Program-made: the position numbers and the translations under genes
Shown: positions 4,707 to 39,835 of the stretch, one piece after another
Layout: each line of letters starts with the position of its first letter
Position numbering within the stretch: the first letter of the stretch is position 1
DNA from: Methanobacterium ferruginis
GTDB lineage: Archaea > Methanobacteriota > Methanobacteria > Methanobacteriales > Methanobacteriaceae
DNA: 64,000 nucleotides
Assembly (NCBI RefSeq): GCF_030296715.1
Contig: NZ_AP027738.1
Location: 1,892,026-1,956,025, forward strand
Reading direction: 5' to 3'
Notes under the pieces: generated by a model
Databases searched by the model: none
What the model was told of the DNA's origin: nothing
Seen by the model: only the letters and a program-made list of their open reading frames with translations

Positions 4707-4712
4707 AAAAAA

Positions 4713-6286: not shown

Positions 6287-6607
6287 ATGATGGTTGGCAG
6301 TTTAATTGAAAAATATAGGCTGAAACAGGAAGAACGGACTGAAATCCTTTTACAACAACTCATCAAGCAGGGTGTAGATCCTCTGGTTGTTCAGATTTTA
6401 GCTGAGGAGTACCTGGTTGATTTCCAGGAATACAATGGAGAGATTTTATTACATCCACTTTATGAAGGCCGCCCTAACTATTCAGAATTTAAGGAGCTGG
6501 CCACTCTCATGATTGATGAGGAAATCACCTTCACTCATGAGACCCAGGAATTCATTTTAGAGGACAATGCATTCCTGGAACTGGCCCGTAAGCTCTTGGA
6601 GGAATAG
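6287..6607 (+). CDS. hypothetical acidic protein (106 aa)
   Basis: ORF in the same operon. Confidence 0.45.
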   Translation: MMVGSLIEKYRLKQEERTEILLQQLIKQGVDPLVVQILAEEYLVDFQEYNGEILLHPLYEGRPNYSEFKELATLMIDEEITFTHETQEFILEDNAFLELARKLLEE

Positions 6608-6819
6608 ATGATGAGAAGGACACTCCAGGCCCGGGAGCGGTGTTCATGGTGGAAGATCTTTTTAATTAGATATCGGTACCAGGTACTCTGTCTCATCATC
6701 ATTGCGGTGTTATTAGCTGCACTGGCCTGGAGTCATAATCCTGCTGAATTGGAAGGAGTGTATGCACTTGGGTGAGATTTGTATGATGGGGTTGTTTTCA
6801 AGTGTAACTTTTGATTTAT

Positions 6820-10288: not shown

Positions 10289-13200
10289 TTAAGGGGTTGA
10301 AATGTAGTCTGTTATGTTGTTGTATGTGTGTGAAGTAGATTGGTTGGTTTCAGATATGTATTCATCTATTCTTGTGAAAATTCCATCAGGAATGAGTTCT
10401 GTAGCTACGAAGTTTTGTACGATTTCTTGTACGCTTTTGCCGTAAGCTGTTTTTATCACACTTTCGATTACTCCATATTTAATGTATACTACTCTTGCCA
10501 CGTAAATTATTTCTGGAACTTCAACGCCACCTACAAATTTTACTCCCACTCTAACTGGTAATGTTTGGATTAAGTAACCTTCGAAACTTATTGGTATGTG
10601 TGAAGCAACAATGGCAACACCCTCTTTTATAAATTGAACTTCGTATAATTCACCTGCTACACCTCCACCACGTAATGGTAAGACATATGAGAGAACCAAA
10701 TTAGAAGTGAATTTAAACCCATTCCAAAAAGTCCACTCCTCACTAAGACCCGAATCAATATAATTAAGATAAATTCCGCCAGCACCAATAACTCCTCCCA
10801 AAAAAATTCCTTTAGGATTAGGAGGTCCATCTGCTTTGATAGTTTTGTAGAGTATTGATGATGATAGGGACATTATTAATCCACTTCCTAAACCTAATAT
10901 GCTGGTTTTGGAAATCGTTGGATTTGCTTCATTATTTGCAATAAGTGATGCTACTATCATACTTGCTATTAGGTATGCATCTTGTAGTTCTTCAAATGTG
11001 GGTGTTCTGTCAGGAGGTAACAACAATTCAATTATGCCATCCCACAGTGCTCGTGTATTCTCCTTCAAATTCCTGATGTCCTCTAAATTCCTCTGAACAT
11101 TGGGATTATTTTGAATATATTGATTATGTTCGTCCCATACTCCTTGTGGTGGTCCTGAACCCTTTCCTAACCATTGGAGCATACCATCCCATGCAATGTC
11201 AAAACTATTATTGTTTCTGAAGTATTCGGCTGTGTTGAATAATCCGTTGCTTTCGGCTTCTTCTATTGCTCCAGGCCTGAGATTATCAAGTAATTTAAGT
11301 GTTACTAGAGGCACCAATATTGGTGCTAAACCACCTAAAAAATATAGTTCACCAAGAGTAGCTGTTCCACATGCGGACTCTCCTATCACAGCGATGATAC
11401 TGCCTAAAGGAATTGTTGAATTACTAATGGAATTCATCCATTCCGGTTGAATAGTTGGATCGCTGCTGGTTAAGTTTTCAGCTAACGAAATTTGGTTGTC
11501 TGTTATTTGGTCATGGAAGCAGTAAACTCCGTTGATTCCTAATGCGCAGTCAGTAACTATTCCAGTAACCGGATCCAGCAATAAGAAAAGATCATCTTTG
11601 CCTTGAATTTTATAAACCAAATAACCGTTACTGTAGAATAATTCAGGTATTTCTCCGTTGAGGATGCGTTCTCCTAGTCCCAGGGTCACGGAGAGGCTAG
11701 TGGGGTCACTAGCCACACAATATTCTATGGGTGAGAATGCGGATGAACAGGCAAATCTGAATGCCCAAACATTGCTTATTGTGCCGTTTACGTCCATACC
11801 CATCCGGAGATTAGATTCACCAGTAATATAAGCATCTTTAGCATCATCAAGACATGAAACTACCACAGGAGTGGTGCGGCTCCATGTTACATTAAACTCC
11901 TCTGCTGCCTGGTCTGCCACCATGTCATGACATTTGATTACTAGGAGGGATGTGAGGAATGTTCCATAGGCTGCTTTCATAGCCCCTGGAGCGTATAAGG
12001 ATTGTTTGGCTAGCCAGTACTGCACCACATTATTGGTTACTTTGGTGGTGGCAATGGTAAAACTTCTTACACCTTCATATCCTGCATTTCCATCTTCAGT
12101 GTAACCATTGAAGTATATCATGGGGCTTTCACGAAGGATTACATCTCCTGGTTTAATAAAACTCAAAGTTTCGTTGGTATTGGGATTTTTGAGTGTTACA
12201 TATTCAGTAACATCTCCAGGATAAGTCATGAGAACATACATTGAATCTATGAACATATTTCGGTTATTTTTAATGAAATTAATTTCATTGTCTGTGAAAT
12301 TATTTTGTAGTTTAATCAGTGTTAAAAAAACATCTTCCAACTGTTCTATAGTGTAATTTTGGTACTGTGGGTTGAGAGTAATGAAATTCTGTAAGTAAAT
12401 GTTAGATTCTAGTGGATTTAAAAAAATTCCATTTATATAGAGTATTTGATTGAAAACTTGTGCAGAATAAGAATTTTGATAAGTGATATAAGCAGAATTA
12501 ACTACATTCCAACTTAAAACCACATTACCATTAACAATCAAGTCCACCTCATTATGGAATAAGCCGGTATTTTTCCATAATACACTGACCCAGCTTGTGG
12601 ATTCATTTAAAGGTAATGTATATGTTACATCGAGTGGTTGAGTTGTGGATAAGTCAATGGCGGTGCTTATGATCCTTACATTGGCTTGTGCAGCCCAGTC
12701 CACGCTGGTGAGAACGCCCTCATTATCCACTATTGCTATAACACCAGTAACATTGTAAAAATTGGGGTTTAACACCAATGTGGATGATGCTTTGCCATTT
12801 AATGTATATTGCAAGAAAGGTATTGTGCCATTTTGTGCTACGAAATATACTGGTATATTATCAGGTATGCAACCTTGAAGTGAGATATCTTCACCATTAC
12901 TATTATGTGTTAAGTCCGCAGTTATGGTAGATTCATAGATTTTTCCATTTGAAACTTTATATGAAGTAGGACTGATATTTAAAACAAGATAAGGAGTGAA
13001 ATTTTCTCCAATCCACCAAGTTGGTATTGTAGGTTGTTCAGAAGTAGTTTCCACATAAAAAACATCGGCGTTCATAGATAGGTCAGTACCTATTACTGGA
13101 TTGTTTGAACCCCACCAGTTATTAATAACATTAACAGAACCACCTTTCATAAAAAGGCCAGTTTTATTGTTTCCTGTAATCCGATTAAAATGTATATGGG

Positions 13201-16200
13201 CATTGGTGGCGTAAGTGTAAATCCCGATATAATTGTTAATTATAGTATTCTCCAGAACATGAGTATCTTCTGATCCTGAAGATGAACTGTAATAATCACT
13301 TTCGATGAAGATTCCATTTGTATTATTCATTATCAAGTTTTCAGTGATATAATTGTAGAAAGATATTGAATGTGTTCCAAAGCAGTATTCTTCATAATCT
13401 AAAATAGCATATTCATACAGTTCCGGGATATTATCATATGTAGAACTAAAAAACTCGTCAAAACTATCACACCAAGCAGGTACTAAAATACCTCTCTCAT
13501 TATTCATTATGATATTAGATTTGACTTGATTATATGATGAGTCCAAAACATAAACTCCATAACAGTTATTTTCAAGGGTGTTGTTTTCTATCGTGCAATT
13601 GTTAGTGGATTTGAGAAGTATGCCAGAAGGGGAAAGAATTTCTGAATATTGATTGGCTTGGTTAGCTCCAATAATAGTAAATCCATAAATGACTGAACCA
13701 TTTCCCCCTGTATTAATGGTGAAAACAGAAAGTGATGGATTAGCTGCCTGTACAGTTACATTACCCTCTGAAATAATAAATAAACTTTTATTAAGTTCAA
13801 TATTTTCCAGATATGTTCCATTTTCTACTAGTATGATGTCACCATCCCTTGTCAATGGATCATTTGCAGCTGCATGTATTGTGTTGAAAGATTTACGGAA
13901 ATCTTTAGAAATTGTTTCATCATCTGCACTTGCAAAAACAGTTGTTGCCTCAGATGAAGAGCTGGAAGTTAAATTCACAGTTGCTCTACCTTTTCTAGTA
14001 GTTGTAGTGGTCGTGATATTTCCCAGCGTGGTGGTGAAATTCACAGGTAAACCATCAGGTATTGCACCAGAACCAGAGGTATCTTCTCCCTGATTGTTAT
14101 GGGTTAGATCGGCAGTTATTTCCGAATTAGAGTTACTGTTTTGGGTTACATGAATAGTTGAGCCTGTTAAATTGAGCATCAGCCAAAGTTCGTGATCAAC
14201 AAATCCATCAGCAATGTGAATATCACTGGAATTATTTGAGGAAACTGTAAGGTTGTTGGTTCCCCACCAGTTGTTGTTTGCGTTTATAGTAGAGTTACCA
14301 TTAGTTTCAAGTCCATATATGTTGTTTTCAATTATTCTATTGAAATTGACAGAAGCTGAGGATGAATAAAAGGTTATTCCACTATAACGGTTATTGGAGA
14401 TGTCATTTTCATAGATGCTATTGTTGTAAGAATCAGAAAATTTCATTCCATTATAACTGTTATGGGAAATGTAATTTCCTAAAAATATATTATTATTACT
14501 TCCACAATTCATGCCCCCAAAATTTATTCCATCTGCACGATTGTATGAAATATTATTGTATAAAATCGTGTTATTTATTGAATTATGTGCTTGTATACCA
14601 TATGTATTCTGTAGAATAACATTATCTGCAATTATATTTTTAGAGGATAGTGAAAGATAAATTGCACAAAATTGGATTTGTTTTAAAATATTTGTTAAAA
14701 GTTGATTATCATTGGAGTTAACAATATTTACTCCTATCACTGCATTTAATAATTGATTCTCTTCTATTTTGCTATTTGACGATTCGCTAATATCAATTGC
14801 AGTGTATGAAGAACTATTTATCGTGTTGTTATGGATTAATGTATTATTTGAAGCATATATGGAGATCCCATAATAATTTCCTTGTATAATATTTCCAATA
14901 ATACTACAATTATTTGCAGACTGAAGATGTATACCCTTTGTATTTTCTGAAGTTTCAGTTTCTATTAAAGTGAAACCCTGTATAGAAGAACCATTTCCAC
15001 TTGAAGTTATGGTAAAAATGGGTTGAGATGAATCCAAAGCAAACAGAGTCACATTACCCTCAGAAACTGCTTTTATGGTGAGACTTTTATTAACAATAAT
15101 ATTCTCTGTGAAAGTTCCTAAGGAAACTTCGATGGTATGACCGCTCAAAGTCAATGGATCATTAATAGCTGCTTGAATACTAAAATAACTTCTTCCTGTA
15201 TTAATATTTTTTATTAATTCAATAATATATTGTTCAGTGTTAACAGGCCCTTGGTTACCTGCATTATCTACTGCTATGAATTTTAAGGTGGTGGTATTAA
15301 CTATGGTGATGGGATTGTTGTATATTGTGCTGGATGTTGTTGGGTTAGTACCATCTATAGTGTAATAGATAGTTGGATTTGGGTCAAGATTGTCTGTTGC
15401 AGTTAAAGTCACAGATTTTGTTGTATTGTAAGTTCCACTTGCAGGATTTGCAACCACGGTTGGTGCTAGGGTATCACTTGATGTTATGGTGATATTTGTT
15501 TGTTCAGTCTGTTCATCTAGTGTAGTAGTGATGGTTGCTGTTCCTGAAGTGGCTGAGCCGCGGTTGAATGTTGTATTTGCTTTTCCATTGTTGGTGTATG
15601 CTGTAGTGGTTATTGTACCTAAATTAGTGGTGAAATTCACTGGAATACCATCTGGTAGATGACCTTGTGAAGAAGTATCGACTCCATTGCTGTTGTGTGT
15701 GAGATCTGCAGTTACAATAGAATTATTATAAGTGGTCGTAGGGGTAGCGATTACATTTAAGACCAACCAAGGGTCTACACACCAAAGAGCTTCATGATCA
15801 TACCATTGTTCAAACACAAAACCATGGCAAAAAATGTCCATAGGGGTGGTTGGTACAGAATAGTCAGAATAATCCATTAATATCTGATTAGAACCCCACC
15901 AGTTATTTTCTGCATCAAAAGATATTCCTTCAATCACTTCTAACCATAAGTCAGCAATATTATTATCGTTTAGCTGGTTGAAGTGCATGTTAAATTGGCT
16001 GGAATTGGAGTAAACACCATAAACGTTTTCAGATATGATATTGCTTATTATGCTGGTGTCGCTTGTGTTCATTCCCCCAATGGCCCAGATTCCACTCCAA
16101 TCACCTAATAAATAAATACCATAGTGATTATTTTTTATTTTATTTTGGGATATTGTGTTGTATAATGAAAATGAAGAATATAATTCTGTACACTCTGCAG

Positions 16201-18247
16201 GGATGAAAATTCCCTGTGTGTTATCTGTTATGCTATTTGACGTAATGTTATTGTTTGATGAATTAAAAAGACTGAGGCCTTCCTGATTATTTGTCACATG
16301 ATTTGAAATAATCTGGTTTCCTGAGGAGTTAGATAAATAGATTCCTTTACTATTACTAATAATATAGTTACCTTGTATTTTACAGTTGCATGCTGAGTCT
16401 AGATATATTCCTGCAGAATTGGTGGCAGCAGTAATCCAGAGATAACGGATCCATGATCCACTACCAAGAGAGGTCACGGTTAAAACAGGTTTCGATGGGT
16501 CAGCAGCCCTTAATGTCACACCCTCACAATCTGGTGTCAGGGTAAGTTTTTTGTTAAGAATGATATTTTCAGTAGGAAGAGTCGCTGCAAGGTAGAGTAA
16601 GTGCCCGTTAATAGTTAATGGATCATCAATTGCTTCTTGGATGGTGGCATAAACTTTTGTTGTGTTGGCATTTTCAACTGGAAGGTTTAATCTGTAAGTT
16701 TCGGTTTGTATTGGTGATTGATTTCCAGTGAAATCTATGGCCATAAATTTTAAAGTAGTAATTCTGTTTTCAAGGAGTATGGGACCCACATACAATGTAC
16801 TTGTGGTTGTAGGGTTACTGCCATTAATTGTGTAATAAATGTGAGGATCAGGGTCGGTGTTATCAGTTACAGTTAAGGTTATATTCTGATAAGTGTTGTA
16901 GGTTCCTCCTGGTAGATTGGCTGTTACGGTTGGTGCTAGGGTATCACTTGATGTTATGGTGATATTTGTTTGTTCAGTCTGTTCATCTAGTGTAGTAGTG
17001 ATGGTTGCTGTTCCTGAAGTGGCTGAGCCGCGGTTGAATGTTGTATTTGCTTTTCCATTGTTGGTGTATGCTGTAGTGGTTATTGTACCTAAATTAGTGG
17101 TGAAATTCACTGGAATACCATCTGGTAGATGACCTTGTGAAGAAGTATCGACTCCATTGCTGTTGTGTGTGAGATCTGCTGTTATGGTAGCGTTATTTGT
17201 CACATTTGTAGGGACTGCAGTTACATTTAGAACCAACCAGGGATCGTATAGGACTGTTCCACCCATTATCATAATATTTGCAGTTTCATTAGAGGACACT
17301 GTTGGGTTGTTAGTTCCCCACCAGTTGTTTGTTGCATTTACATTTCCATTCTCACTGCTAAGCTCATAATCACTGTTTGAAGAAATTCTGTTAAAATGGA
17401 TATCCGCTGAAGAGTTATAAAGATAAATCGTTGCCCAGGTACCAATGATATTATTTTTATAGATATATGTATTGTCTGAATTAGAGATACGAATATCACT
17501 GAGGGTGTTTTCACATATGATACTATTAGCTGAATAATTTGAGATATAAATGCCACCTAAATTATTCTCAAAAAAGATATTATCCATGGAATAATTGAAT
17601 AGTCTGATGGCATCATCGACATTATTATTATCGATGACATTGTCCGTAGAGTTGTATAGGTTAAATCCACCTCCTTCGATATTCACGGAATTATTATTTC
17701 CAGAAATAATGTTGTTCATTGAATTTTCAAGAATAATCCCCATACCATTGTCTATCACAATATTTTCCAATATCTCATTGTTGTTTGAATTTAGAAGTCT
17801 CATTCCAGAACAGCCATTTCCTCTAGCTGAATTTCCAGAAATAGTACAATCATTAGCAGAATTAACATAAACACCAGTAATACCCCCAGTTATAGTAAAA
17901 CCACTAATTATGGATCCACTACCTCCAGAGTTTATAGTTAATGTAGGGTTTGAATAATTGGAAGCTTTAATTGTAACATTAGAACCAGTATCTGTTTTTA
18001 AATTAATATTTTTGTTAATAACAATATTCTCAGTATAAGTATAAGCAGAACCATTATTATCATTCACTATTATGGAATCACCAGAAGATGCACTGTCCAC
18101 CACTGACTGAATACTATCACCCACACTCACATTCCACTCAGCCGCTGAAACTGCTCCACAAAAAAATAACAAAACCACTAAAAACAAGATACCAAAAGAA
18201 AATTTAGACACATTACTCATATTTTTCCCCCCACACATACTTTTCAC
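10289..18247 (-). CDS. giant secreted adhesin-like protein (about 2650 aa) with repeated parallel beta-helix modules, NWWG(T/S)NN motifs and Big/chitobiase-C-like modules
   Basis: N-terminal signal peptide. The likely start is the second ATG, at 18220, after a GGGGGG run. There are four modules of NS/NN-rich beta-helix repeats, each followed by ADLTHNSNG(V/E)D...PDG(I/L)PVNFTT and TLKF(M/I)A(I/V)D..GNQ segments. The architecture is typical of methanogen adhesin-like proteins. Confidence 0.75.
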   Translation of the reverse strand: MKSMCGGKNMSNVSKFSFGILFLVVLLFFCGAVSAAEWNVSVGDSIQSVVDSASSGDSIIVNDNNGSAYTYTENIVINKNINLKTDTGSNVTIKASNYSNPTLTINSGGSGSIISGFTITGGITGVYVNSANDCTISGNSARGNGCSGMRLLNSNNNEILENIVIDNGMGIILENSMNNIISGNNNSVNIEGGGFNLYNSTDNVIDNNNVDDAIRLFNYSMDNIFFENNLGGIYISNYSANSIICENTLSDIRISNSDNTYIYKNNIIGTWATIYLYNSSADIHFNRISSNSDYELSSENGNVNATNNWWGTNNPTVSSNETANIMIMGGTVLYDPWLVLNVTAVPTNVTNNATITADLTHNSNGVDTSSQGHLPDGIPVNFTTNLGTITTTAYTNNGKANTTFNRGSATSGTATITTTLDEQTEQTNITITSSDTLAPTVTANLPGGTYNTYQNITLTVTDNTDPDPHIYYTINGSNPTTTSTLYVGPILLENRITTLKFMAIDFTGNQSPIQTETYRLNLPVENANTTKVYATIQEAIDDPLTINGHLLYLAATLPTENIILNKKLTLTPDCEGVTLRAADPSKPVLTVTSLGSGSWIRYLWITAATNSAGIYLDSACNCKIQGNYIISNSKGIYLSNSSGNQIISNHVTNNQEGLSLFNSSNNNITSNSITDNTQGIFIPAECTELYSSFSLYNTISQNKIKNNHYGIYLLGDWSGIWAIGGMNTSDTSIISNIISENVYGVYSNSSQFNMHFNQLNDNNIADLWLEVIEGISFDAENNWWGSNQILMDYSDYSVPTTPMDIFCHGFVFEQWYDHEALWCVDPWLVLNVIATPTTTYNNSIVTADLTHNSNGVDTSSQGHLPDGIPVNFTTNLGTITTTAYTNNGKANTTFNRGSATSGTATITTTLDEQTEQTNITITSSDTLAPTVVANPASGTYNTTKSVTLTATDNLDPNPTIYYTIDGTNPTTSSTIYNNPITIVNTTTLKFIAVDNAGNQGPVNTEQYIIELIKNINTGRSYFSIQAAINDPLTLSGHTIEVSLGTFTENIIVNKSLTIKAVSEGNVTLFALDSSQPIFTITSSGNGSSIQGFTLIETETSENTKGIHLQSANNCSIIGNIIQGNYYGISIYASNNTLIHNNTINSSSYTAIDISESSNSKIEENQLLNAVIGVNIVNSNDNQLLTNILKQIQFCAIYLSLSSKNIIADNVILQNTYGIQAHNSINNTILYNNISYNRADGINFGGMNCGSNNNIFLGNYISHNSYNGMKFSDSYNNSIYENDISNNRYSGITFYSSSASVNFNRIIENNIYGLETNGNSTINANNNWWGTNNLTVSSNNSSDIHIADGFVDHELWLMLNLTGSTIHVTQNSNSNSEITADLTHNNQGEDTSGSGAIPDGLPVNFTTTLGNITTTTTTRKGRATVNLTSSSSSEATTVFASADDETISKDFRKSFNTIHAAANDPLTRDGDIILVENGTYLENIELNKSLFIISEGNVTVQAANPSLSVFTINTGGNGSVIYGFTIIGANQANQYSEILSPSGILLKSTNNCTIENNTLENNCYGVYVLDSSYNQVKSNIIMNNERGILVPAWCDSFDEFFSSTYDNIPELYEYAILDYEEYCFGTHSISFYNYITENLIMNNTNGIFIESDYYSSSSGSEDTHVLENTIINNYIGIYTYATNAHIHFNRITGNNKTGLFMKGGSVNVINNWWGSNNPVIGTDLSMNADVFYVETTSEQPTIPTWWIGENFTPYLVLNISPTSYKVSNGKIYESTITADLTHNSNGEDISLQGCIPDNIPVYFVAQNGTIPFLQYTLNGKASSTLVLNPNFYNVTGVIAIVDNEGVLTSVDWAAQANVRIISTAIDLSTTQPLDVTYTLPLNESTSWVSVLWKNTGLFHNEVDLIVNGNVVLSWNVVNSAYITYQNSYSAQVFNQILYINGIFLNPLESNIYLQNFITLNPQYQNYTIEQLEDVFLTLIKLQNNFTDNEINFIKNNRNMFIDSMYVLMTYPGDVTEYVTLKNPNTNETLSFIKPGDVILRESPMIYFNGYTEDGNAGYEGVRSFTIATTKVTNNVVQYWLAKQSLYAPGAMKAAYGTFLTSLLVIKCHDMVADQAAEEFNVTWSRTTPVVVSCLDDAKDAYITGESNLRMGMDVNGTISNVWAFRFACSSAFSPIEYCVASDPTSLSVTLGLGERILNGEIPELFYSNGYLVYKIQGKDDLFLLLDPVTGIVTDCALGINGVYCFHDQITDNQISLAENLTSSDPTIQPEWMNSISNSTIPLGSIIAVIGESACGTATLGELYFLGGLAPILVPLVTLKLLDNLRPGAIEEAESNGLFNTAEYFRNNNSFDIAWDGMLQWLGKGSGPPQGVWDEHNQYIQNNPNVQRNLEDIRNLKENTRALWDGIIELLLPPDRTPTFEELQDAYLIASMIVASLIANNEANPTISKTSILGLGSGLIMSLSSSILYKTIKADGPPNPKGIFLGGVIGAGGIYLNYIDSGLSEEWTFWNGFKFTSNLVLSYVLPLRGGGVAGELYEVQFIKEGVAIVASHIPISFEGYLIQTLPVRVGVKFVGGVEVPEIIYVARVVYIKYGVIESVIKTAYGKSVQEIVQNFVATELIPDGIFTRIDEYISETNQSTSHTYNNITDYISTP
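15456..15709. repeat. 254-bp segment repeated exactly 1470 bp downstream (16926-17179), inside the adhesin gene
   Basis: Compared base by base; the two copies are identical. Confidence 0.85.
16926..17179. repeat. second copy of the exact 254-bp intragenic repeat
   Basis: Identical to 15456-15709. Confidence 0.85.
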
Positions 18248-20803: not shown

Positions 20804-21295
20804 TTGAAAATATCTAATTATCCTGTGATGAAGTTATCTGAAATAAGATTACACCCTCAAAACCCAAGACAACATACTGATGACCAGATAAAAAAGATTG
20901 CAAATAGCATTAAAGAACTTGGATGGGGAAGGCCATTAATATTAAGCCGTGATAATTTCATTTTAGCTGGTCATGGTGCATACTTAGCAGCCAGAGACAT
21001 TTTAGGATATACTGAAGCACCAATAAAAAATATGAACCACTCCCATGATGCTCCTGAAGCATTGGCCTATATGGTTGCAGATAATAAATTGACTGAAGAA
21101 AGTGATTGGAACTATGCAAAACTAGAAGCATTAAATGAAAATCTACAACTTGAAGGATTTGACACTACACTAACCGCCTTTGATACAGATTTGAAAACAC
21201 CTAACTTTCAACCAGTTAACGAAGAAAAACAACCCAGACTTGATAAGTTAGATCCTAAAGGTTTAAAATGTCCAGAGTGTGGATACGAATGGTAG
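20804..21295 (+). CDS. ParB-like nuclease domain (ParB N-terminal/sulfiredoxin-fold) protein
   Basis: LSEIRLHPQNPRQHTDDQIKKIANSIKELGWGRPLILSRDNFILAGHGAYLAA resembles ParBc (..NPR......l..L..SI...G...Pi.v......ii.G.hR..Aa). The C-terminus has a C..C pair. Confidence 0.6.
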   Translation: MKISNYPVMKLSEIRLHPQNPRQHTDDQIKKIANSIKELGWGRPLILSRDNFILAGHGAYLAARDILGYTEAPIKNMNHSHDAPEALAYMVADNKLTEESDWNYAKLEALNENLQLEGFDTTLTAFDTDLKTPNFQPVNEEKQPRLDKLDPKGLKCPECGYEW

Positions 21296-21903
21296 ATTTG
21301 AAAGTTGATTTCTGTAGTTATGAAGCAGCTAAACATGCAGTATTGCATTGGCATTACTCACGGTCAATGCCCGCAGGAAAACTAGTGAAAATTGGTGCAT
21401 GGGAAAATGGAAAATTCATTGGATGTGTGCTCTTTGGAAGAGGAGCAAACAATCACATAGGAAATCCTTACAATTTAAAACAAAATGAAGTATGTGAACT
21501 TGTTAGAATTGCACTAAAAAACCACCAAACAAATGTAACCAAAATAGTAAGCAAATCTTTAAAACTATTGAAAAAAACGAATCCGTACCTTAAATTAGTT
21601 GTAAGCTATGCAGATAAAGACCAAAATCATTTAGGGAAAATATATCAAGCAGGTAATTGGATATATGATGGTTTAAAAAACCAAAACACTGCAGGAGCAT
21701 TTATAATTAAAAACAAAAAGGTACACCCCCGATCTGTTGCATCTATGGGATGGGTACAATCATTAAAATGGATTCAGGAGAATGTTGACCCTAATGCTAG
21801 AACACATATTACAAAAGGTAAATTCAAATATCTCTACCCCTTGTCCAAAAAAACACGTGAACAAATCAGACCTTTAAAGAAACCTTATCCTAGGCGGTTG
21901 TAG
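21268..21903 (+). CDS. hypothetical protein (211 aa), overlaps the ParB-like gene; possible DNA-modification partner
   Basis: Overlapping, translationally coupled ORF. No confident motif. Confidence 0.45.
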   Translation: MSRVWIRMVDLKVDFCSYEAAKHAVLHWHYSRSMPAGKLVKIGAWENGKFIGCVLFGRGANNHIGNPYNLKQNEVCELVRIALKNHQTNVTKIVSKSLKLLKKTNPYLKLVVSYADKDQNHLGKIYQAGNWIYDGLKNQNTAGAFIIKNKKVHPRSVASMGWVQSLKWIQENVDPNARTHITKGKFKYLYPLSKKTREQIRPLKKPYPRRL

Positions 21904-21970
21904 TTTAATGGAGGCCAAAACCCATCATCATACCAATGATGAGAAGCTGGTTCAAATCCAGCCAACCGCA
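21894..21970 (+). tRNA. tRNA-like gene (77 nt); putative anticodon UAC (Val) in a non-canonical loop
   Basis: Folded by hand. Acceptor stem 7 bp and perfect (gcggttg/caaccgc). D stem gttt/aaac with a GG-containing loop. T stem gctgg/ccagc with loop TTCAAAT. The anticodon stem is 6 bp (catcat/atgatg) with loop CATACCA, so position 33 is A and position 37 is C, both atypical. The 5' end overlaps the stop codon of the upstream ORF. Confidence 0.45.
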
Positions 21971-22033
21971 CTCAAACCTGAATTAATGCGAGATTAGAAA
22001 AATTATTATACAAAATTAATATTACTAACTAAC

Positions 22034-22999
22034 ATGATTGAAACACGCACAGTGTTAATCTTAGGAGCAGGTGCTAGTGCTCCTTATGGTTATCCTCTTG
22101 GAAATACACTAAAAAGCAAAATAGCTAATTCTTTACATTATATGATACAAAAAGAATATGGGTGGATTCAAGATTCAGATATTCCGAAAGAATTAATCAA
22201 ACAATTTATTGACAGTTTAAATCAAACCAGAAGACCTTCAATAGACTCTTTTTTAGCTAAACAAAAAGAAGAATTTACAGAAATTGGAAAAATAGCCATA
22301 GCTCATCAGATCGCTCAATGTGAAAAAAGAGGGATAATCTATTCAGATTCAATGAAAGCAAATAAAGAATTAGACGAAACAGATGATTGGTATGGTTATT
22401 TAGTAGAAATTCTTTATGAATCAGAAATAGATAAAATTGGAAAAAATCTTAGTATAGTTACTTACAATTATGATAGATCTCTTGAATATTTTTTATTAAA
22501 AACTTTGCTTAATGATTTTGGGGATTTAGAAACTGTTGATGATTGTATTCCATTAATCGAAAAGATCCCAATAGTACATATTTATGGAAGGTTAGACCCT
22601 CTCCCCTGGGAATTGGCTTGTGATAAATATGATACAGGAAGGGATTATGGGGATACCTGTTCAAGTGAAAATTTGTTCCAAATAAGTGAGAATATTAAAT
22701 TAATTCAGGAAACCCAACATTCTTCTGTGGTTGAAGATGCAAACAAAGTAATAAAGAAAGCCCATAAAATTTATTTTTTAGGGATGGATTTATACAGAAA
22801 CCGAGGAAATGTGAATTTATTAGATACTTCATCATTTAATGGTAAAACTATAGTAGCTACAGGATATGGTTTAGAAGGAGGAGAAAGAAATCGTATCACA
22901 TCTTTTTTTAAACATATTCCAAATGTTAATGTACCCCCAACGTTTAGAATTTCAGATTCAAAAACATTAATGACTATTAGAAGTCTTAATCCATTTTAA
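22034..22999 (+). CDS. stand-alone SIR2_2-family (DHS-like NAD-binding) protein; candidate NAD-depleting anti-phage defence gene (ThsA/DSR-type SIR2 without the usual partner domain)
   Basis: LILGAGASAPYGYPLGNTLKSKI gives GAGxS plus GxP, LSIVTYNYDRSLEY gives the TTNYD..LE hallmark, and IPIVHIYGRL gives the HxxG motif. The protein has 321 aa. It sits between the early/ParB region and TerS in the prophage. Confidence 0.7.
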   Translation: MIETRTVLILGAGASAPYGYPLGNTLKSKIANSLHYMIQKEYGWIQDSDIPKELIKQFIDSLNQTRRPSIDSFLAKQKEEFTEIGKIAIAHQIAQCEKRGIIYSDSMKANKELDETDDWYGYLVEILYESEIDKIGKNLSIVTYNYDRSLEYFLLKTLLNDFGDLETVDDCIPLIEKIPIVHIYGRLDPLPWELACDKYDTGRDYGDTCSSENLFQISENIKLIQETQHSSVVEDANKVIKKAHKIYFLGMDLYRNRGNVNLLDTSSFNGKTIVATGYGLEGGERNRITSFFKHIPNVNVPPTFRISDSKTLMTIRSLNPF

Positions 23000-23004
23000 A
23001 CCCC

Positions 23005-23325
23005 CTAATATTTTTGTTTATGAGAATCATAATATCTCATAAATTCTTTTTTATGTTTTCCAATGAAATCTGAGTAATTTTTATCTGTTATTTCTAATAA
23101 TCTAAGTAAACTTTTAAAACACACAATCACAACCCGAATAATAGCCCCAGACCCCACCTCATTTTTCAAAATATCAACATGAATCACCTCACCATGACCA
23201 CCAAGATAACCACATAACCTACTTTTTATAACATGAAAATTCTCTTCTTTCAACTCAGGATCTGCAAAGATCAGTATTGTTTCACGAACGTAACCTTTGT
23301 CATGATTGTATTCCTTCATCTGCAA
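23005..23325 (-). CDS. hypothetical protein (106 aa), antisense, directly downstream of SIR2
   Basis: ORF; no motif. Confidence 0.4.
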   Translation of the reverse strand: MQMKEYNHDKGYVRETILIFADPELKEENFHVIKSRLCGYLGGHGEVIHVDILKNEVGSGAIIRVVIVCFKSLLRLLEITDKNYSDFIGKHKKEFMRYYDSHKQKY

Positions 23326-23436
23326 GTATTTTAAAACGATCTCTAACTCCTCCTAGGATCCTATGATCGTGGGGCATTGGTTTTAAGCAAAGTCAAAGAG
23401 CACTAGAGAATTAATCACCAAAAACCGGCGAGGACA

Positions 23437-23994
23437 ATGAAGGAGAAAGAAAACCACCTCGACGCTTTTGAGTATTTTTACAGTCTTGGAGGTGCTGCAT
23501 CTGCAGAAAATTGCAGAAAAGTTGCAGATAAATTTCAGATATCTGAAAGATCATTCTGGAACTGGTACAAGGAATTAGGGTGGAAAGAAAGGGTTCACCT
23601 ACGCAACATTGAAGTTGCCAAAGGAGTGGAAGAAAAAACGGTCTCTACTCTTATTGAGAATAAAGCGAAGTACCTATCTTACGTTCACAAATTATTCGAT
23701 GACTGGAAAGCGAAGGTTGATGCTGGTGAGGTTCCAGTTGAGATTAAATCCGTTAGTGATGTTGATAAAATTGTGAAACTTGCTTTACTACTTCAAGATG
23801 AGGCTACTGATAAGACTGAAACTTCTGTTACTGGAACTTTAAATTTTAAAGCCCAGGGTTTGGAGCGCCTGAGAAGGATTGAGGCACAGCATGACAGCGG
23901 TGACGGTGGCCACTCCTCAGTCGACGGAGGACCTGCAGGCACAGGTGAATCTGGAACTGAGGAACATTCAGAAACAAGAACCAGAGATAAATAG
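23437..23994 (+). CDS. putative terminase small subunit (HTH-type)
   Basis: It lies immediately upstream of the terminase large subunit, which it overlaps. The N-terminus is helix-rich (FEYFYSLGGAASAENCRKVADKFQISERSFWNW) and the C-terminus is acidic. Confidence 0.5.
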   Translation: MKEKENHLDAFEYFYSLGGAASAENCRKVADKFQISERSFWNWYKELGWKERVHLRNIEVAKGVEEKTVSTLIENKAKYLSYVHKLFDDWKAKVDAGEVPVEIKSVSDVDKIVKLALLLQDEATDKTETSVTGTLNFKAQGLERLRRIEAQHDSGDGGHSSVDGGPAGTGESGTEEHSETRTRDK

Positions 23995-25447
23995 TCTTGA
24001 AGATCTTATTGATTGGAAGATTACAGTCTGGGAAAAACAGTTTGAAGTTGATGACCGGGTTCGATGCCTGTGGCAGTCCCTTTCCCGGGATGAAAAAGAT
24101 AATTTTTATGATACTGTTATTCTGAATCCTTACATTCCTGTTGTTCCATTTTTCCAGCAGATATTGCTTCTGGTTACCCATGGATCTACCTTGTATGGTG
24201 GTGCTCGTGGTGGGGGTAAGACTGAGGCCAGTTTGATAGCTGCTCTGCAATATGTTGATTATCCTCAGTGGAAAGCTGGTATTTTCCGTTTAACTTATCC
24301 TGATTTGTCAGCTCCAGGGGCCATAATGGACCGTGCCCTTGACTGGCTGAGTAAAGATAGAAATCCCCTACTTGAAGAGGCGGGTATTGCACCACGTTGG
24401 GATAAAGCTGACAAGGTTTTCATATTTCCTAGTGGTGCTAAGGTTAAATTTGCCCATGTTCAGCATAATAAAGATGCTGAGAAATACCAGGGCAGTGAAT
24501 TCCATTTATTAATATTTGATGAAGCAGTACTCTTCACTGAGTACAAAATTACTAGGATTAAAGGTTCTAATCGTAAGAAAATCAATGATCCGCTACCGAT
24601 ACGGATTATTTTCACAGGTAACCCTGGTGGTATTAGTCATGATTATTTCAAGGATAGATTTATTGATGGTCCTGGCCTGTTCATTGACAGTAAATATACT
24701 GATAATCCGTACTTGGACCATGAGAAATATGAAGAGATTTTTATTGAAATTGAGGACAGTGATCCTGTCCTTTGGAGGCAGTGGAAGCATGGTGATTGGA
24801 ATGCAGTGCCTGAAGGTAAACTCTTCAAACGAAAATGGTTCACCAAGGCCAGTCGTCTCTATGAAGTCATCACAGAAAAAATACTGCAATGGGTGCGTTT
24901 CTGGGATCTGGCCGCTACAGAAGAAGAAGATGATACCAAACAGGGAGGAGCTGACTGGACCGTGGGAATGCTCCTCGGCCTAGGAGAATCTGGTAAAGTT
25001 TACCTGGAGGATATTGTAAGATTCCGAAAAGATGCAGATGAAGCTGAAGAACTGATCCTGGAAACCGCCAGGAAAGATGCAGAAAAATATGGAAGGACCA
25101 ATATCAAGATCCGGATAGAAAAAGAAGGCGGAGCATCAGCCAATTATGTGATGAACACATTCAGCAAATACCTACCCGGATTTGACTTTGAAGGCCACAA
25201 CGTCCAAAGAAAAAGCAAATTAGACCGAGCCAGAGCATTTGTCAGTTTCATTAAACACGGTCACCTCAAAATAAGAGAAGGAGCAAGCTGGATAACCACA
25301 TTCATAAATGAAGTAGCATCATTCCCCACCAAAGGAATCCATGATGACCAAGTGGACACTCTCAGCGGAGGATTAAACGAACTATTTTATGGTGAGCAAC
25401 CCACGGAACGTGTTCCATTCAACCCAACATTAAGGAGCAGAAGATAA
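23879..25447 (+). CDS. terL: terminase large subunit
   Basis: Walker A GGARGGGKT, and a Walker B-like hhhhDE in HLLIFDEAV. 522 aa. The following gene is portal-sized. The true start may lie downstream of 23879. Confidence 0.8.
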   Translation: MRHSMTAVTVATPQSTEDLQAQVNLELRNIQKQEPEINSLEDLIDWKITVWEKQFEVDDRVRCLWQSLSRDEKDNFYDTVILNPYIPVVPFFQQILLLVTHGSTLYGGARGGGKTEASLIAALQYVDYPQWKAGIFRLTYPDLSAPGAIMDRALDWLSKDRNPLLEEAGIAPRWDKADKVFIFPSGAKVKFAHVQHNKDAEKYQGSEFHLLIFDEAVLFTEYKITRIKGSNRKKINDPLPIRIIFTGNPGGISHDYFKDRFIDGPGLFIDSKYTDNPYLDHEKYEEIFIEIEDSDPVLWRQWKHGDWNAVPEGKLFKRKWFTKASRLYEVITEKILQWVRFWDLAATEEEDDTKQGGADWTVGMLLGLGESGKVYLEDIVRFRKDADEAEELILETARKDAEKYGRTNIKIRIEKEGGASANYVMNTFSKYLPGFDFEGHNVQRKSKLDRARAFVSFIKHGHLKIREGASWITTFINEVASFPTKGIHDDQVDTLSGGLNELFYGEQPTERVPFNPTLRSRR

Positions 25448-26871
25448 TGGCAGATAAAAGGCAAGTGAACCCACCTGTAATGAGCAACACTGTAGTTGAT
25501 CAGATCTCCAGGGTTATGCGCAGGTACGATCCCCACTTCAGGACCTGGGCCTACAGGCAGGTGGCAGATTATCCTGTTCCAAGTGAAGCAGAATTAATAG
25601 TCCATTACCTTCGAGGTGGTGCCGGGCCATTTATCGATATCAAAATGTATGTGGAGCTCGGTGTAGGATGGACTTTAAAACCAGTTGGCTTCGAGGAGGA
25701 AGAAGATGGCCAGGAGGCTAAGAAAATAGTTGATGACCTCTTTGAGAAAATGGACTTCCATGGCACAATGATGGAACTGGACATGTTTTACCGTGTACTG
25801 GGCCGTGCATGTTTGGTCAAAACCTACGACTTGAATGGTGACTTTTACTTCAACAAAAACGAAAAAGTCACCGGAGTAGACAGCATCAACCCCATGACCC
25901 TCACCGACACCAGTCTAAGAGAAGTCATGGCCGACCGTACAGGGACAAAAACATACATCCAACAAGTTTCTGGAGTTAATGGCCAGGGAGGTACTGTGGC
26001 CCTGGAGCAGGACCGTGTTAATTACCTCACAAACAATCCATTCGCCAAACACAGTACCTATGGGAATAGTGACCTGAACAATTCCATTACAGATCTAAGA
26101 ACCCTGGCCAGATTTCCACATTACCGAGATGATCTGGCAAGATTATACTCCCAGATGCACCGTATTGTAAAGATTGACAGTGAAAAAATAGCAGGAACAG
26201 AGTACGGTGAAGAAATCAGAAATGATCCTAGAAAAGCCCAGGAATATTTAGATGACACAGGTGACTTCTACAGGAAACAGGAAAAAGAAGGTGGAACTGT
26301 AGTAGTATTTGATTGGGAAGAAGTCATCCAGTCCAGCTGGGCAGGTAAAGAAGTTAAACTTGCAGACCTGGAAAGACAAACCCTGGAATCAATCGCATTC
26401 AAACAACACGTACCATTACCCATACTATTATTCGCACAATATGTCAACCGGGACACCCTGGAAACACTGGTAGATGTATTTGTTAATGTACTAAACAATG
26501 GAACCCGGGATAGGGTTTTCACTCCATTAATCACTCATACAGCAAATGAGATCCTCTACCAGAATGAAATTACAGATGGCCACATGGAGGTTCAGTACAA
26601 CCCATTCCTCAGTAAAGATCTACTGAAACTATCCCAGATTATGGGTAACTTATGGCCCACAGGCAGCATAAGCAGACCAGACATCCGTGAATGGATGGGA
26701 ATGATCATGCAACCCAACATGGGAGGAGAAGCCTGGAAAGATCTAAAACCCATGCCAAACAATCAAGCCTCTCCATCAAACCCTATTATGGAAGAGAAAA
26801 AAGTGGATCCTAACCTTGTAAAATCAGTGGATCGATATCTTGAGAAACGTGGCCTTGTTAAATTCTTCTAA
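25447..26871 (+). CDS. putative portal protein
   Basis: 474 aa, immediately after terL with an ATG overlapping its stop. Call is by gene order and size. Confidence 0.55.
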   Translation: MADKRQVNPPVMSNTVVDQISRVMRRYDPHFRTWAYRQVADYPVPSEAELIVHYLRGGAGPFIDIKMYVELGVGWTLKPVGFEEEEDGQEAKKIVDDLFEKMDFHGTMMELDMFYRVLGRACLVKTYDLNGDFYFNKNEKVTGVDSINPMTLTDTSLREVMADRTGTKTYIQQVSGVNGQGGTVALEQDRVNYLTNNPFAKHSTYGNSDLNNSITDLRTLARFPHYRDDLARLYSQMHRIVKIDSEKIAGTEYGEEIRNDPRKAQEYLDDTGDFYRKQEKEGGTVVVFDWEEVIQSSWAGKEVKLADLERQTLESIAFKQHVPLPILLFAQYVNRDTLETLVDVFVNVLNNGTRDRVFTPLITHTANEILYQNEITDGHMEVQYNPFLSKDLLKLSQIMGNLWPTGSISRPDIREWMGMIMQPNMGGEAWKDLKPMPNNQASPSNPIMEEKKVDPNLVKSVDRYLEKRGLVKFF

Positions 26872-26904
26872 TAGTCCTATTCAGAAGTCTATATGATTAA
26901 ATGG

Positions 26905-27612
26905 TTATAAATATAGAAATTTTAGAAGTACAATAAAAAGTATCATAGTAATTAATATTATTTTAAGGTGGTACATAACCTTTTGACTTCTACCATATGA
27001 CCATATAACGAAGATTATTATTAATAAAAATGCTGTAAGGAATAAAAAGAAGTTCCATACTATTAATTGCAAATATGCCAGGATTATTCCAAAATAACCA
27101 ATTAAAACATATTTCTCAGAATTAGTTTCTAAACGTTCTGTGACTTGCTGGCCTTCTGTTAACTGTTCTAACATTTTAAATAATTTATTTATATTTCTAA
27201 CACTATCAGAACCGATTAGAAAATCTCCACCTAAAATATCATCATCACAAATAATCCTTATCCAATTTTGGATGTACACTGTACCAATTAAACCATATGG
27301 ATGAAATTCTTTGAAAGGATATTTTTCAAAGGATTTAATATTAGAACGATTCAAAACGAACGATAAATCCTCTTTCAGATTCTGATACTTTGAATCAGAA
27401 TCATCAAAACTATTATACTCTAAAGCATCATCTTTAATGGTCAGATCTCCACGAGAAAAATATGCACATGGCTTGTTTTTAGCCCGTGGAAATCCCTCAG
27501 GTAAACTAAAATTACGTAATAATATCTCACTAAAAGATGAAGATTTAATTAATTTTACAATATCATCTAAATGATTTATAGAGCTTATCCAGATAACAGA
27601 TTCTAAATCCAT
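26905..27612 (-). CDS. antisense moron: protein with C-terminal transmembrane helices (235 aa)
   Basis: Opposite strand within the structural module. Very AT-rich. Two C-terminal TM segments. Confidence 0.5.
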   Translation of the reverse strand: MDLESVIWISSINHLDDIVKLIKSSSFSEILLRNFSLPEGFPRAKNKPCAYFSRGDLTIKDDALEYNSFDDSDSKYQNLKEDLSFVLNRSNIKSFEKYPFKEFHPYGLIGTVYIQNWIRIICDDDILGGDFLIGSDSVRNINKLFKMLEQLTEGQQVTERLETNSEKYVLIGYFGIILAYLQLIVWNFFLFLTAFLLIIIFVIWSYGRSQKVMYHLKIILITMILFIVLLKFLYL

Positions 27613-27797
27613 TAAAACACCTTTTGCGGTAAAATGTTAATGTTAAATTGATTTGTAAACATTATTTCTATTAGATTATCATACGATAAATAATAATTTT
27701 TTTATTATTGAATATAACCTTTGCGCTCTTTTAATCCAGAATACTTTTTAATTTCGTTAATCGTGCTATGACAAACACCCCCTTGAGATGATGCTAA

Positions 27798-35529: not shown

Positions 35530-36069
35530 CTATTTTATAGATTGGAAAATAGTGTTTGCTGTTTCGTTGATTTCTTGTTCATCAGATTCAAACCCATAAA
35601 CTGAGATTAAATACACAGTATCTTTAACCTTAAAAACCATGTTAAATGACATAGTAGCCAAAGTATCATCTTGCTTTCCAATGATCTTTTCTACAACAAC
35701 ACCATTAGGATTCGTTTCAATGGAATTATATGCTATTTCATCACTTGAATTACTTTCAACATTAGTCCGATAATTATTTATTAATTCCGTTGCTGAAGTA
35801 GCTGTCACATTCTTAAATACAATGAAGTTATGTTTATGGAGTGTATTTTTTCCTTTGAAATAAGCAATTTCATTTAAAATATCCCCACTAGCATTAATAT
35901 TATGCTTAGTATATTCAGCACTACTAAAACTGTCAGGGTAATCAAAACTCATAACACCATCCGAAAATGTTATAATCTCATTAGATTCATTAGAAAACGG
36001 ATTAGTACCAGCATAAAACAATACAACAATAAAAAATACCATAATCAGTGAAATACTCTTTTTTCCCAA
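35530..36069 (-). CDS. antisense moron: secreted protein with an N-terminal signal/TM
   Basis: MGKKSISLIMVFFIVVLFYAG reads as a signal anchor. Opposite strand, AT-rich. Confidence 0.5.
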   Translation of the reverse strand: MGKKSISLIMVFFIVVLFYAGTNPFSNESNEIITFSDGVMSFDYPDSFSSAEYTKHNINASGDILNEIAYFKGKNTLHKHNFIVFKNVTATSATELINNYRTNVESNSSDEIAYNSIETNPNGVVVEKIIGKQDDTLATMSFNMVFKVKDTVYLISVYGFESDEQEINETANTIFQSIK

Positions 36070-36984: not shown

Positions 36985-37311
36985 TTACTTTATTTTCTTT
37001 TCATTCTCATAAAATTTTAAGAACCTTTCTTGAAGATCTACAATCAACCTAATTTTCTTTAAAGGATGTGAAGGGACTAATCTATCAGGAATAACAACAG
37101 TTATATCCATAATTAAAGTTTTTAAATCTTCATTATATTTGCATTCAGATTCCACACTATAATCACTAGATAAATTAAAAATAAAATTATCTAACCTATC
37201 CTTTAATGATTCATATTCCTCTTCACTACTATATCTTTCTTTAAAAGTAAAATTGAAATCTGTGGCTATGGATTTTGTTTTAATAACGTTTCTTTCAATC
37301 AGTTCTAACAC
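36985..37311 (-). CDS. hypothetical protein (108 aa), first gene of an antisense cassette inserted in the tail module
   Basis: ORF. Confidence 0.45.
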   Translation of the reverse strand: MLELIERNVIKTKSIATDFNFTFKERYSSEEEYESLKDRLDNFIFNLSSDYSVESECKYNEDLKTLIMDITVVIPDRLVPSHPLKKIRLIVDLQERFLKFYENEKKIK

Positions 37312-37329
37312 AATATATTACCTCAATAC

Positions 37330-39075: not shown

Positions 39076-39079
39076 ACAA

Positions 39080-39775
39080 TCACCCCAAATTAGAAATTCT
39101 CCTGTTTATATAACTCACACAGTTAAAAGCATCTTTTTTCTTTACATCATCAACTCTGATCTCTTGTTGATTTTTTAGTAGGATCTGAATTGTTTTTTTG
39201 CTTGAAGCATAAAGGGCGAGTGGAGTGAAAAACACCAGCCCTACAACTATTTTATTGCTCTTATTTGACAACAATGTAGCACTTTCAATTTCATCATAGT
39301 AAAAAAATTCTTTACCCTTAATTTCTATTCCTTCACTTGATAATGCAATAAATTTACCTGAACCACCCTTACTAATATAATAACCATGTTCATCTAACAC
39401 TTCATGCACCAATGAAACACTTTCAGCAGCTTCCCGTTTTGCTTTTGCCAATACAAATGCCTGATATTCTTCCCAACTCTTACCTTTTTTCTTTGATTTG
39501 TCTTCATCTGTGTATTCATCATCATAAACAGACTCTAACAGGGTTACAATGTTTTCACCACACTCACCACAAAAATTAGCTATAATTGGTGTTTCACTAC
39601 CACAAAAAGGACAGATAATTGTTTCATTAAAAAGTAAATCATCATCTATTTGTTCATCAGAATCTAGAAAAAATAATATACCCCCACATTCACATTCATC
39701 ATCGAAATCTTCAGGTTTTTCATCTTCTTCTAGTTCATAATATCCTTTACAGTTTTGACAAACAAGATACCCCAC
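39080..39775 (-). CDS. double zinc-ribbon protein (231 aa)
   Basis: CQNCKGYY...CECGG and [19 protein letters not shown]. Confidence 0.5.
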
Positions 39776-39835
39776 GTATAACCGCCCCCTTTGATTACAT
39801 AATTTCTAATAAGATTATCCCTAAATTAAAAAGGA

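Follow-up and report, generated by a model that had tools for sequence, protein, structure and literature searches.

A partner-less SIR2-like gene carried as a one-gene cassette by a Methanobacterium provirus

The stretch analysed here (the window) comprises 64,000 nucleotides from the genome of the methanogenic archaeon Methanobacterium ferruginis (contig NZ_AP027738.1, positions 1,892,026 to 1,956,025) and contains a provirus in which a gene for a stand-alone SIR2-like protein lies between the early genes and the packaging genes. We find that this gene is a true single-gene moron, a one-gene mobile cassette shared by otherwise distant Methanobacterium viruses, and that its product has the conserved pocket and, as modelled, the fold of the immune branch of SIR2 enzymes (SIRim). 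The open reading frame (ORF), the elements within it and those next to it are as follows.

21997..22010, + strand: element GAAAAATTATTATA (motif G-AAAAATTATTATA), resembling an archaeal transcription factor B recognition element (BRE) plus TATA box; ends 23 nt before the ATG
22034..22999, + strand: SIR2-like ORF, ATG start, 321 aa; stand-alone single-domain (SIRim-type) protein
22064..22078, + strand: GAGAS NAD-binding loop, residues 11-15
22460..22486, + strand: TYNYDRSLE motif, residues 143-151, with putative catalytic N145 and D147
22577..22588, + strand: H-I-Y-G motif, residues 182-185, with invariant His182, and Tyr184 at the canonical HG His position
23011..23019, + strand: T-rich tract TTTTTGTTT, 12 nt past the stop codon and inside the 3' end of the convergent gene
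23005..23325, - strand: convergent small gene, 106 aa from a TTG, or 104 aa from a conserved ATG at 23319

The SIR2-like protein and its predicted fold

An identical M. ferruginis protein in the databases carries the label "hypothetical protein". The initial annotation had read from the ORF the motifs GAGAS, TYNYD..LEY and HIYG; all are present, the second spanning residues 143-152 as TYNYDRSLEY, and all are conserved in a family alignment (A1) of the protein with 118 homologues (119 sequences, 31-63% identity). S15, D71, G85, E97, W119, Y146, D147, R148, H182, G185 and G250 are invariant in all 119 sequences, while G11, A12, G13 and N145 are each kept in 118 and A14 in 114. Because they are conserved across this alignment, the motifs are under selection and did not arise by chance. 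The family profile, when compared with PDB sequences, reaches KomC alone (E 0.002), aligning the TYNYDRSLE region with TTNYDRWIE of KomC; the single protein, used as the query against the same sequences, finds no match. The glycine loop GAGxS and the catalytic Asn/Asp pair (N145-Y-D147) of the SIRim branch are both found in the protein. Classical sirtuins use a Cys4 zinc module for substrate binding, and it is this module that separates them from the SIRim branch (bioRxiv 10.1101/2024.09.18.613514). The SIR2-like protein has four cysteines (positions 96, 171, 196 and 209), none of which is conserved, and zero CxxC pairs, and hence it lacks the zinc module.

The AlphaFold2 model built from the family alignment (pLDDT 94.3, pTM 0.92) is a single domain with six parallel strands (residues 6-10, 139-143, 180-182, 245-249, 272-276 and 303-307) and an all-helical insert after strand 1. 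As predicted, therefore, the protein has the architecture of SIRim enzymes, namely a Rossmann alpha/beta/alpha fold whose central sheet has six or more parallel strands, with a helical insert following the first. The C-terminal 120 or so residues, which the initial annotation had singled out for structure prediction, are modelled as strands 4-6, which with their helices complete the same Rossmann fold, and a separate C-terminal domain is rejected on the model. Comparison with known structures gave the following structure-match figures.

PsSIR2 of the SIR2-HerA system: 15.4 (identity of the structure taken from bioRxiv 10.1101/2023.11.13.566805)
ThsA: 13.1
KomC: 13.0 and 12.5
Nezha Sir2: 12.9
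Classical sirtuins: 12.0 or below
Human FAM118B: 11.7

In its predicted fold the SIR2-like protein is thus nearest to the defence-type SIR2s of SIR2-HerA, ThsA and KomC. Among the viral structures of BFVD the nearest is a Marseillevirus Sir2 (TM 0.4), with nothing closer.

The pocket has one unusual feature. HMMER places the catalytic F-H-G of KomC on the I-Y-G of the SIR2-like protein, so that the position of the canonical HG histidine is occupied by Tyr184. Across the 119 sequences this position is Tyr in 69, His in 42, Phe in 6 and Asn in 2. His182, two residues before it, is invariant and closes strand beta3 in the model; to judge from the sequences, it may have taken over the catalytic role. 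Among distant viral relatives, one (L033) has the canonical HG alone, and another (L032) has no His at either position.

A single-gene cassette among Methanobacterium viruses

The close homologues of the gene (48-61% identity) reside in Methanobacterium proviruses and viral contigs, where the gene order is ParB-methyltransferase, SIR2-like gene, convergent small gene, small terminase (TerS), large terminase (TerL) and portal. By BLASTN, the related locus L037 matches L001 at 86% up to L001 position 3821 and again at 81% from position 4876, so that exactly 1,054 nt are missing from it, comprising the promoter-like element and the ORF (3878-4846 in L001); compared with L006, it lacks exactly 1,010 nt. 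The cassette defined by these indels holds the SIR2 ORF and the BRE/TATA-like promoter element, and no other gene. In L015, the nearest relative of the window virus (TerL 94% identical), the slot holds a DUF5518 membrane-protein gene (4694-5092, -) instead of SIR2; in L016 (TerL 77%) it is empty, and the methyltransferase gene abuts the small gene. Neither L035 and L036, with an ORF of 84-86 aa in the slot (6394-6648, +, in L035), nor L037 and L038, with a 48-aa ORF only (6299-6445, -, in L037), carries SIR2. The interval from the methyltransferase to the small gene is a hotspot of variation, whose content is SIR2, DUF5518, the 84-86-aa ORF, the 48-aa ORF or nothing.

The cassette is found on three backbones, whose TerL proteins are 24-28% identical. 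The window TerL is 25-28% identical, over 36% of its length, to those of the viruses that share the cassette, and ParB is 29-31% identical; nucleotide homology with these viruses is confined to window positions 21994/21997-23823, a stretch spanning the promoter-like element, the SIR2 and small genes and the 5' portion of TerS. On the third backbone (L020 and L021), a SIR2 copy of 44% identity lies directly upstream of that backbone's own terminase genes, and no homologue of the small gene is present. Archaeal promoters are built from a BRE and a TATA box, and this architecture is the basis on which we read the upstream element as a promoter. The promoter-like motif is invariant in five loci on the three backbones (the window, L001, L004, L006 and L020; alignment A7), and it looks like a BRE and TATA box serving a leaderless or short-leader transcript. 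Downstream, the T-rich tract TTTTTGTTT is a possible archaeal termination signal.

The G+C content of the SIR2 gene is 0.30, lower than that of the provirus (0.374) and of the terminase and portal genes (0.43-0.44). It also diverges much faster than the genes that flank it, an arms-race signature: between L001 and L004 the identity is 60% for SIR2, 82% for the small gene and 88% for both the methyltransferase and TerL, and between L001 and L006 it is 53% for SIR2 and 93% for the methyltransferase. The exact indel, the occurrence on three backbones, the fast divergence and the low G+C content make the SIR2 gene a true single-gene moron, with presence in some relatives and absence from others, a putative promoter of its own and atypical composition. 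The initial annotation had assigned the gene to a classic moron slot, an assignment which the precise 1.0-kb presence/absence indel, the conserved promoter-like motif and the low G+C content bear out.

L001, which has the cassette, and L015, the relative of the window virus that does not, both come from JGI sample 3300027566; the co-occurrence of the two backbones in one sample is consistent with exchange of the cassette by recombination. An MmeI-like type IIG/IIL restriction-modification gene adjoins several of the related Methanobacterium proviruses (407-3535 in L006; the right ends of L035-L038), which suggests a common integration neighbourhood or a defence island.

The convergent 106-aa gene has a different history. 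Only 19 homologues are found in 5.8 billion clusters, the few that bear an organism name being from Methanobacterium and the loci examined being of viral type, and its protein matches no family in the libraries scanned (Pfam, PADLOC, NCBIfam and PHROGs). The model of the protein is moderately reliable only, with generic ferredoxin-like matches. The gene is transcribed divergently from TerS. It is kept without SIR2 in six related loci (L015, L016 and L035-L038; 58% identity to the window copy in L015 and 42% in L016), and it is missing beside all SIR2 homologues outside Methanobacterium. The co-occurrence of the two genes, which the initial annotation had proposed to check, thus breaks down in both directions, and the numbers of homologues (19 against thousands) differ as well; a role as partner of SIR2 is rejected. 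The 106-aa gene is a conserved, lineage-restricted gene of this group of Methanobacterium viruses and is independent of the SIR2 cassette.

The genes that flank the cassette and the small gene are viral, and they are syntenic with IMG/VR viral contigs.

20804-21295, + strand: ParB-like gene, upstream; stand-alone ParB-like N-terminal domain
21268-21903, + strand: Mom-like DNA-modification gene (PF25680, E 2.4e-48; phrog_1384)
21894-21971, + strand: tRNA-Val (TAC), virus-encoded (ARAGORN; Rfam tRNA, 52.5 bits)
23437-23994, + strand: small terminase (TerS), downstream
23879-25447, + strand: large terminase (TerL), downstream
25447-26871: 474-aa ORF without family match, in the position of the portal gene of related viruses

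With ParB and Mom upstream and TerS and TerL downstream, the gene does lie inside a prophage between early and packaging genes, as had been thought. The window TerL is 40% identical to that of Methanobacterium phage psiM2, and the 94%-identical TerL of L015 belongs to an IMG/VR viral contig of 30.8 kb. The ParB-like and Mom-like ORFs overlap by 28 nt. Where the window has ParB and Mom, L001, L004, L006, L015 and L016 carry a fusion of ParB with an N6/N4-methyltransferase; because the relatives hold this fusion at the Mom position, the modification module has been swapped. The tRNA-Val begins within the final codons of the Mom-like ORF, and 23 nt separate its end from the left edge of the cassette; it is missing at the equivalent position in the related viruses, which carry tRNAs for Ala and Thr elsewhere. 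Pfam, PHROG and PADLOC scans of the neighbouring window genes (20804-25447) reveal no TIR, HerA-type or pAgo (prokaryotic Argonaute) gene. The view that the protein lacks a SLOG, TIR, HerA or pAgo partner accordingly holds, both for its single domain and for the adjacent genes of the window.

Elsewhere in the window, a weak tyrosine-integrase-like ORF (285-1502, +), with Phage_int_SAM_4 and Phage_integrase matches (the latter below cut-off), lies 17 kb upstream of the early genes. A giant ORF of 2,652 aa (10289-18247, -) lies just upstream of the proviral early region, and a PG_binding_1 protein (49545-50516, +), probably a lysin, lies at the far end. Between the portal and the next structural gene, a 235-aa ORF on the opposite strand (26905-27612, -; G+C content 0.27), with no PDB sequence match, looks like a second moron; it is missing in L015, where homology jumps from window position 26871 to 27777. 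Amid the structural genes there is also an opposite-strand block (36985-40243, -) of four genes (108, 581, 231 and 135 aa; G+C content 0.25-0.33 and strongly negative GC skew), with a 179-aa low-GC gene close by (35530-36069, -). The 581- and 231-aa proteins of the block have no PDB sequence match; block and 179-aa gene are possible further cargo or defence genes. The other 321-aa ORF of the window (61516-62481), when compared with the SIR2-like protein, is unrelated to it.

The wider family and the proposed role of the gene

A family profile search over 1.84 billion representatives, with clusters at 50% identity, returned 6,610 clusters at E<=1e-30 and 11,924 at E<=1e-3. The members of the best 150 clusters are 283-420 aa long, nearly all about 300 aa, and are matched end to end. 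The family is thus a large set of solo single-domain SIR2 proteins, unnamed in any defence catalogue. Members occur in at least 476 metagenome loci, and the overwhelming majority lie on contigs that appear to be cellular; the family is also represented on 17 IMG/VR viral contigs, in the vicinity of genes for terminase, portal, methyltransferase, primase or structural proteins. GenBank phage records, queried with archaeal and bacterial members, contain no homologue, and a plasmid search produced only 25%-identity matches, on rhizobial megaplasmids.

Neighbourhoods were surveyed more broadly in 80 metagenome loci; 209 neighbours from 110 loci were clustered by BLAST, and Pfam and PADLOC scans covered 94 immediate neighbours. 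The clustering of the 209 reveals no conserved partner outside the Methanobacterium viruses, and no family occurs more than twice among the 94 (TIR_2 being one of those found twice); a conserved partner anywhere in the family is therefore rejected. The surroundings of five cellular members are as follows.

L007: caspase and FGE-sulfatase operon, followed by toxin-antitoxin genes
L009: islet beside SmpB (tmRNA-linked)
L011: type IIG restriction-modification gene and a weakly HepT-like gene
L012: DUF6932 gene
L013: UPF0175/DUF3368 toxin-antitoxin pair

Two distant members have a co-oriented neighbour of another kind. On the viral contig L022 (6001-7434), a TIR protein of 157 aa is encoded 3 nt after the SIR2 gene (PDB 7uxr, E 1.8e-5), and in L048 (4073-5927) a 298-aa protein that clusters by BLAST with the L022 TIR protein is encoded 31 nt before it. 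The L048 neighbour is tentatively a TIR protein as well, to judge from this similarity, an unattributed Pfam TIR_2 count and PDB matches at E 0.07-0.12. L022 and, tentatively, L048 thus look like a Thoeris-like pairing of TIR and SIR2 in which SLOG is missing. The restriction-modification, toxin-antitoxin and TIR neighbours lend qualitative support to a role in conflict systems; with these and the viral contexts in hand, the concern that homologues might never be located in mobile or defence contexts, raised by the initial annotation, does not apply.

We therefore favour, with a probability of roughly 0.55, the reading that a temperate tailed virus of Methanobacterium carries this gene as a one-gene accessory cassette, which encodes a partner-less SIRim-type enzyme for virus-virus or virus-host conflict. 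Under this proposal a BRE/TATA-type promoter of its own would drive the gene, uncoupling its transcription from that of the early and packaging genes on either side, and the gene would be expressed in the lysogen. The protein would bind NAD+ through the GAGAS loop and the pocket formed by N145, D147 and H182, and upon a trigger it would consume NAD+, acting as an NADase or, less likely, as an ADP-ribosyltransferase. The enzyme would probably be triggered either when it directly binds a component of a foreign virus or when it assembles into oligomers or filaments, as other single-domain SIRim enzymes do. With its NAD+ lost, the cell would be arrested, and a virus that superinfects or competes would be blocked, whether through abortive infection or through superinfection exclusion.

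Several observations weigh against this proposal. No curated defence model claims the SIR2-like protein. The initial annotation had placed it in SIR2_2, but the Pfam profile (PF13289) scores 14.8 bits against a gathering score of 24.5 (E 0.032), over residues 140-201 only; 61 of the 119 aligned sequences match SIR2_2 weakly at E<=0.01, the best at E 1e-7. The generic PADLOC "SIR2" model PDLC04087 gives a weak and partial match (E 2.8e-8, residues 2-154 only) and is matched by 113 of the 119, never better than E 4e-14; the PADLOC Aga_SIR2 model gives weak matches only, to 18 of the 119. Scans of the protein with NCBIfam and PHROGs returned nothing meaningful. The 94 immediate neighbours are mostly unrelated, some are housekeeping genes and defence genes are a minority, so that the survey does not demonstrate enrichment in defence islands. 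Catalytic competence would rest on the shifted, invariant His182, the canonical His being a Tyr. A toxic NADase would have to be kept silent, and neither a sensor domain nor a partner is present that could explain how. Finally, co-orientation with the viral early and late genes and adjacency to an anti-restriction methyltransferase or Mom gene also fit an offensive role for the virus.

An offensive role of this kind, in which an enzyme expressed during the lytic cycle ADP-ribosylates a host protein, a nucleic acid or a component of host defence, or destroys an NAD-derived molecule, is in our view unlikely, although it is the main rival; on this reading the SIR2 gene would be one member of a variable anti-defence locus that also contains the DNA-modification genes beside it. 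The gene directly follows ParB-methyltransferase (in L001-type loci) or ParB and Mom (in the window), on the same strand as the early and packaging genes, and its fast divergence and patchy presence suit counter-defence as well as they suit defence. Some sirtuins act, moreover, as ADP-ribosyltransferases, and the modification of macromolecules has been put forward as a role for viral sirtuins (PMC9503650). A more specific version, in which the enzyme is offensive cargo beside the methyltransferase or Mom gene and ADP-ribosylates or in some other way disables a host immune component by means of the relocated histidine (H-x-Y-G), is somewhat less likely still; if this version were true, SIR2-type counter-defence would be represented for the first time, both in general and in an archaeal virus. 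Nevertheless, the family is mainly cellular and, by the cluster and locus counts above, very large, its restriction-modification, toxin-antitoxin and TIR neighbours are typical of host immunity, the structural neighbours of the protein are all immune NADases, and the putative promoter suggests expression uncoupled from the lytic programme. We know of no SIR2-fold anti-defence protein, which also counts against an offensive role.

That the protein is a catalytically dead or structural remnant, binding NAD or a nucleotide as a sensor or decoy, is doubtful. Tyr184 in place of the canonical His, the variability of position 184 and the absence of a His at either position from L032 would be explained in this way. 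Yet His182, N145, D147, R148 and GAGAS are essentially invariant in the 119 sequences despite identities of 31-63%, and such near-invariance of the pocket residues points to strong selection on the pocket; in the model, in addition, His182 lies at the C-terminal end of beta3. Less probable still is an RNA-repair sirtuin, a KptA-like enzyme that removes 2'-phosphates with NAD and is perhaps linked to the tRNA-Val. Iyer et al. predict a role in RNA repair for most phage sirtuins (PMC9503650), and the tRNA-Val does end 23 nt before the cassette boundary, but the other cassette-bearing viruses have no tRNA at that position, no RNA ligase, 2H, Nudix, cREC or kinase gene was identified nearby in the window or in the surveyed related loci, and the protein has neither a homologue in GenBank phage records nor a close structural match in BFVD. 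Least probable of all, and very nearly negligible, is a housekeeping-type deacylase (a classical sirtuin) or deoxyhypusine-synthase-like enzyme captured by the virus, an assignment that the initial annotation had named as one that would overturn its view. Neither the protein nor its relatives in the 119-sequence set give a single match to PF02146 or to deoxyhypusine synthase, the Cys4 zinc module is missing, and the distribution of the gene is accessory, patchy and of the indel type.

Comparison with known SIR2 systems

Defence-type SIR2 NADases almost always sit in larger systems, with SLOG or TIR, HerA, pAgo, STAND or KomA/B components. The favoured reading, that of a partner-less conflict enzyme on a one-gene cassette, departs from this pattern, and the initial annotation had regarded a SIR2-only effector in an archaeal virus as unusual. 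Such an effector is not unprecedented, since AbiH of Lactococcus is a single-gene SIR2-like abortive infection protein, presumed to deplete NAD, whose mechanism is itself unknown (PMC13064643), and the present family alone exceeds 6,000 clusters. Like the window gene, abiH is a single, partner-less gene found on mobile elements, and it encodes a single-domain SIR2-like protein (of about 350 aa). The two differ in the domain of life of their hosts and in that the window protein does not match the AbiH family PF14253 at E<=1, a family that is weakly matched by four of the 119 aligned sequences (best E 2.3e-4). Single-gene SIR2s of the immune type on prophages are already known as a kind of system. 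What is new is a family that lies outside the curated defence catalogues, its shifted invariant His, which is an enzymological oddity, and a bare one-gene cassette moving among methanogen viruses. A survey of 2022 found a sirtuin in only one archaeal virus (PMC9503650), and beyond it our search of the literature on SIR2 in Methanobacterium proviruses or archaeal viruses returned nothing relevant.

The systems with dedicated partners are more distant. In SIR2-HerA the SIR2 protein needs an adjacent HerA ATPase, with which its dodecamer forms a complex (bioRxiv 10.1101/2023.11.13.566805). The proteins of SIR2-HerA and Nezha (PDB 8w9l, PsSIR2, and 8j4u) are 10-12% identical in sequence to the SIR2-like protein, whose neighbours are a tRNA-Val, the Mom-like gene, the 106-aa gene and TerS; no HerA-type neighbour is found in the adjacent window genes (Pfam, PADLOC and PHROG), in the Pfam listings of the related loci or among the families listed for the 94 immediate neighbours. 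KomC of Kongming (PDB 8zsf and 9v0g) works with KomA and KomB, neither of which adjoins the window SIR2 gene; the window gene has no co-oriented partner, and no neighbour recurs in about 100 loci. At the histidine motif, KomC shows the canonical F-H-G and this family H-x-[Y/H]-G. Compared with Thoeris ThsA (PDB 7uxt), the window protein has no SLOG domain, and there is no ThsB or TIR gene in the scanned part of the window (20804-25447). Unlike SPARSA, it has, as modelled, no APAZ or other extra domain, and the scans of adjacent genes show no pAgo. DSR1 and DSR2 are about 1000 aa long and have a large C-terminal sensor region; the window protein has 321 aa and its family 283-420 aa.

A parallel for regulation is FAM118B/SIRanc (PDB 9r0p), a SIRim protein that likewise has a single domain and needs oligomerisation or filament formation for its NADase activity; by analogy, it could serve as a model for the regulation of a sensor-less SIR2. 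SIRim enzymes are NADases activated by oligomerisation (bioRxiv 10.1101/2024.09.18.613514), and the helical filaments of KomC and the filaments of FAM118B both represent single-domain SIRim enzymes that are switched on by assembly (PDB titles; bioRxiv 10.1101/2024.09.18.613514). Set beside these systems, the Methanobacterium cassette is a unit of about 1 kb, consisting of a 320-aa SIR2 domain and a promoter element only, that moves between archaeal viruses. If the enzyme is active, NAD-targeting conflict genes would be added to the poorly known viruses of methanogens, and the family would offer a minimal system in which to see how a SIR2 domain on its own can sense infection and keep its toxicity in check.

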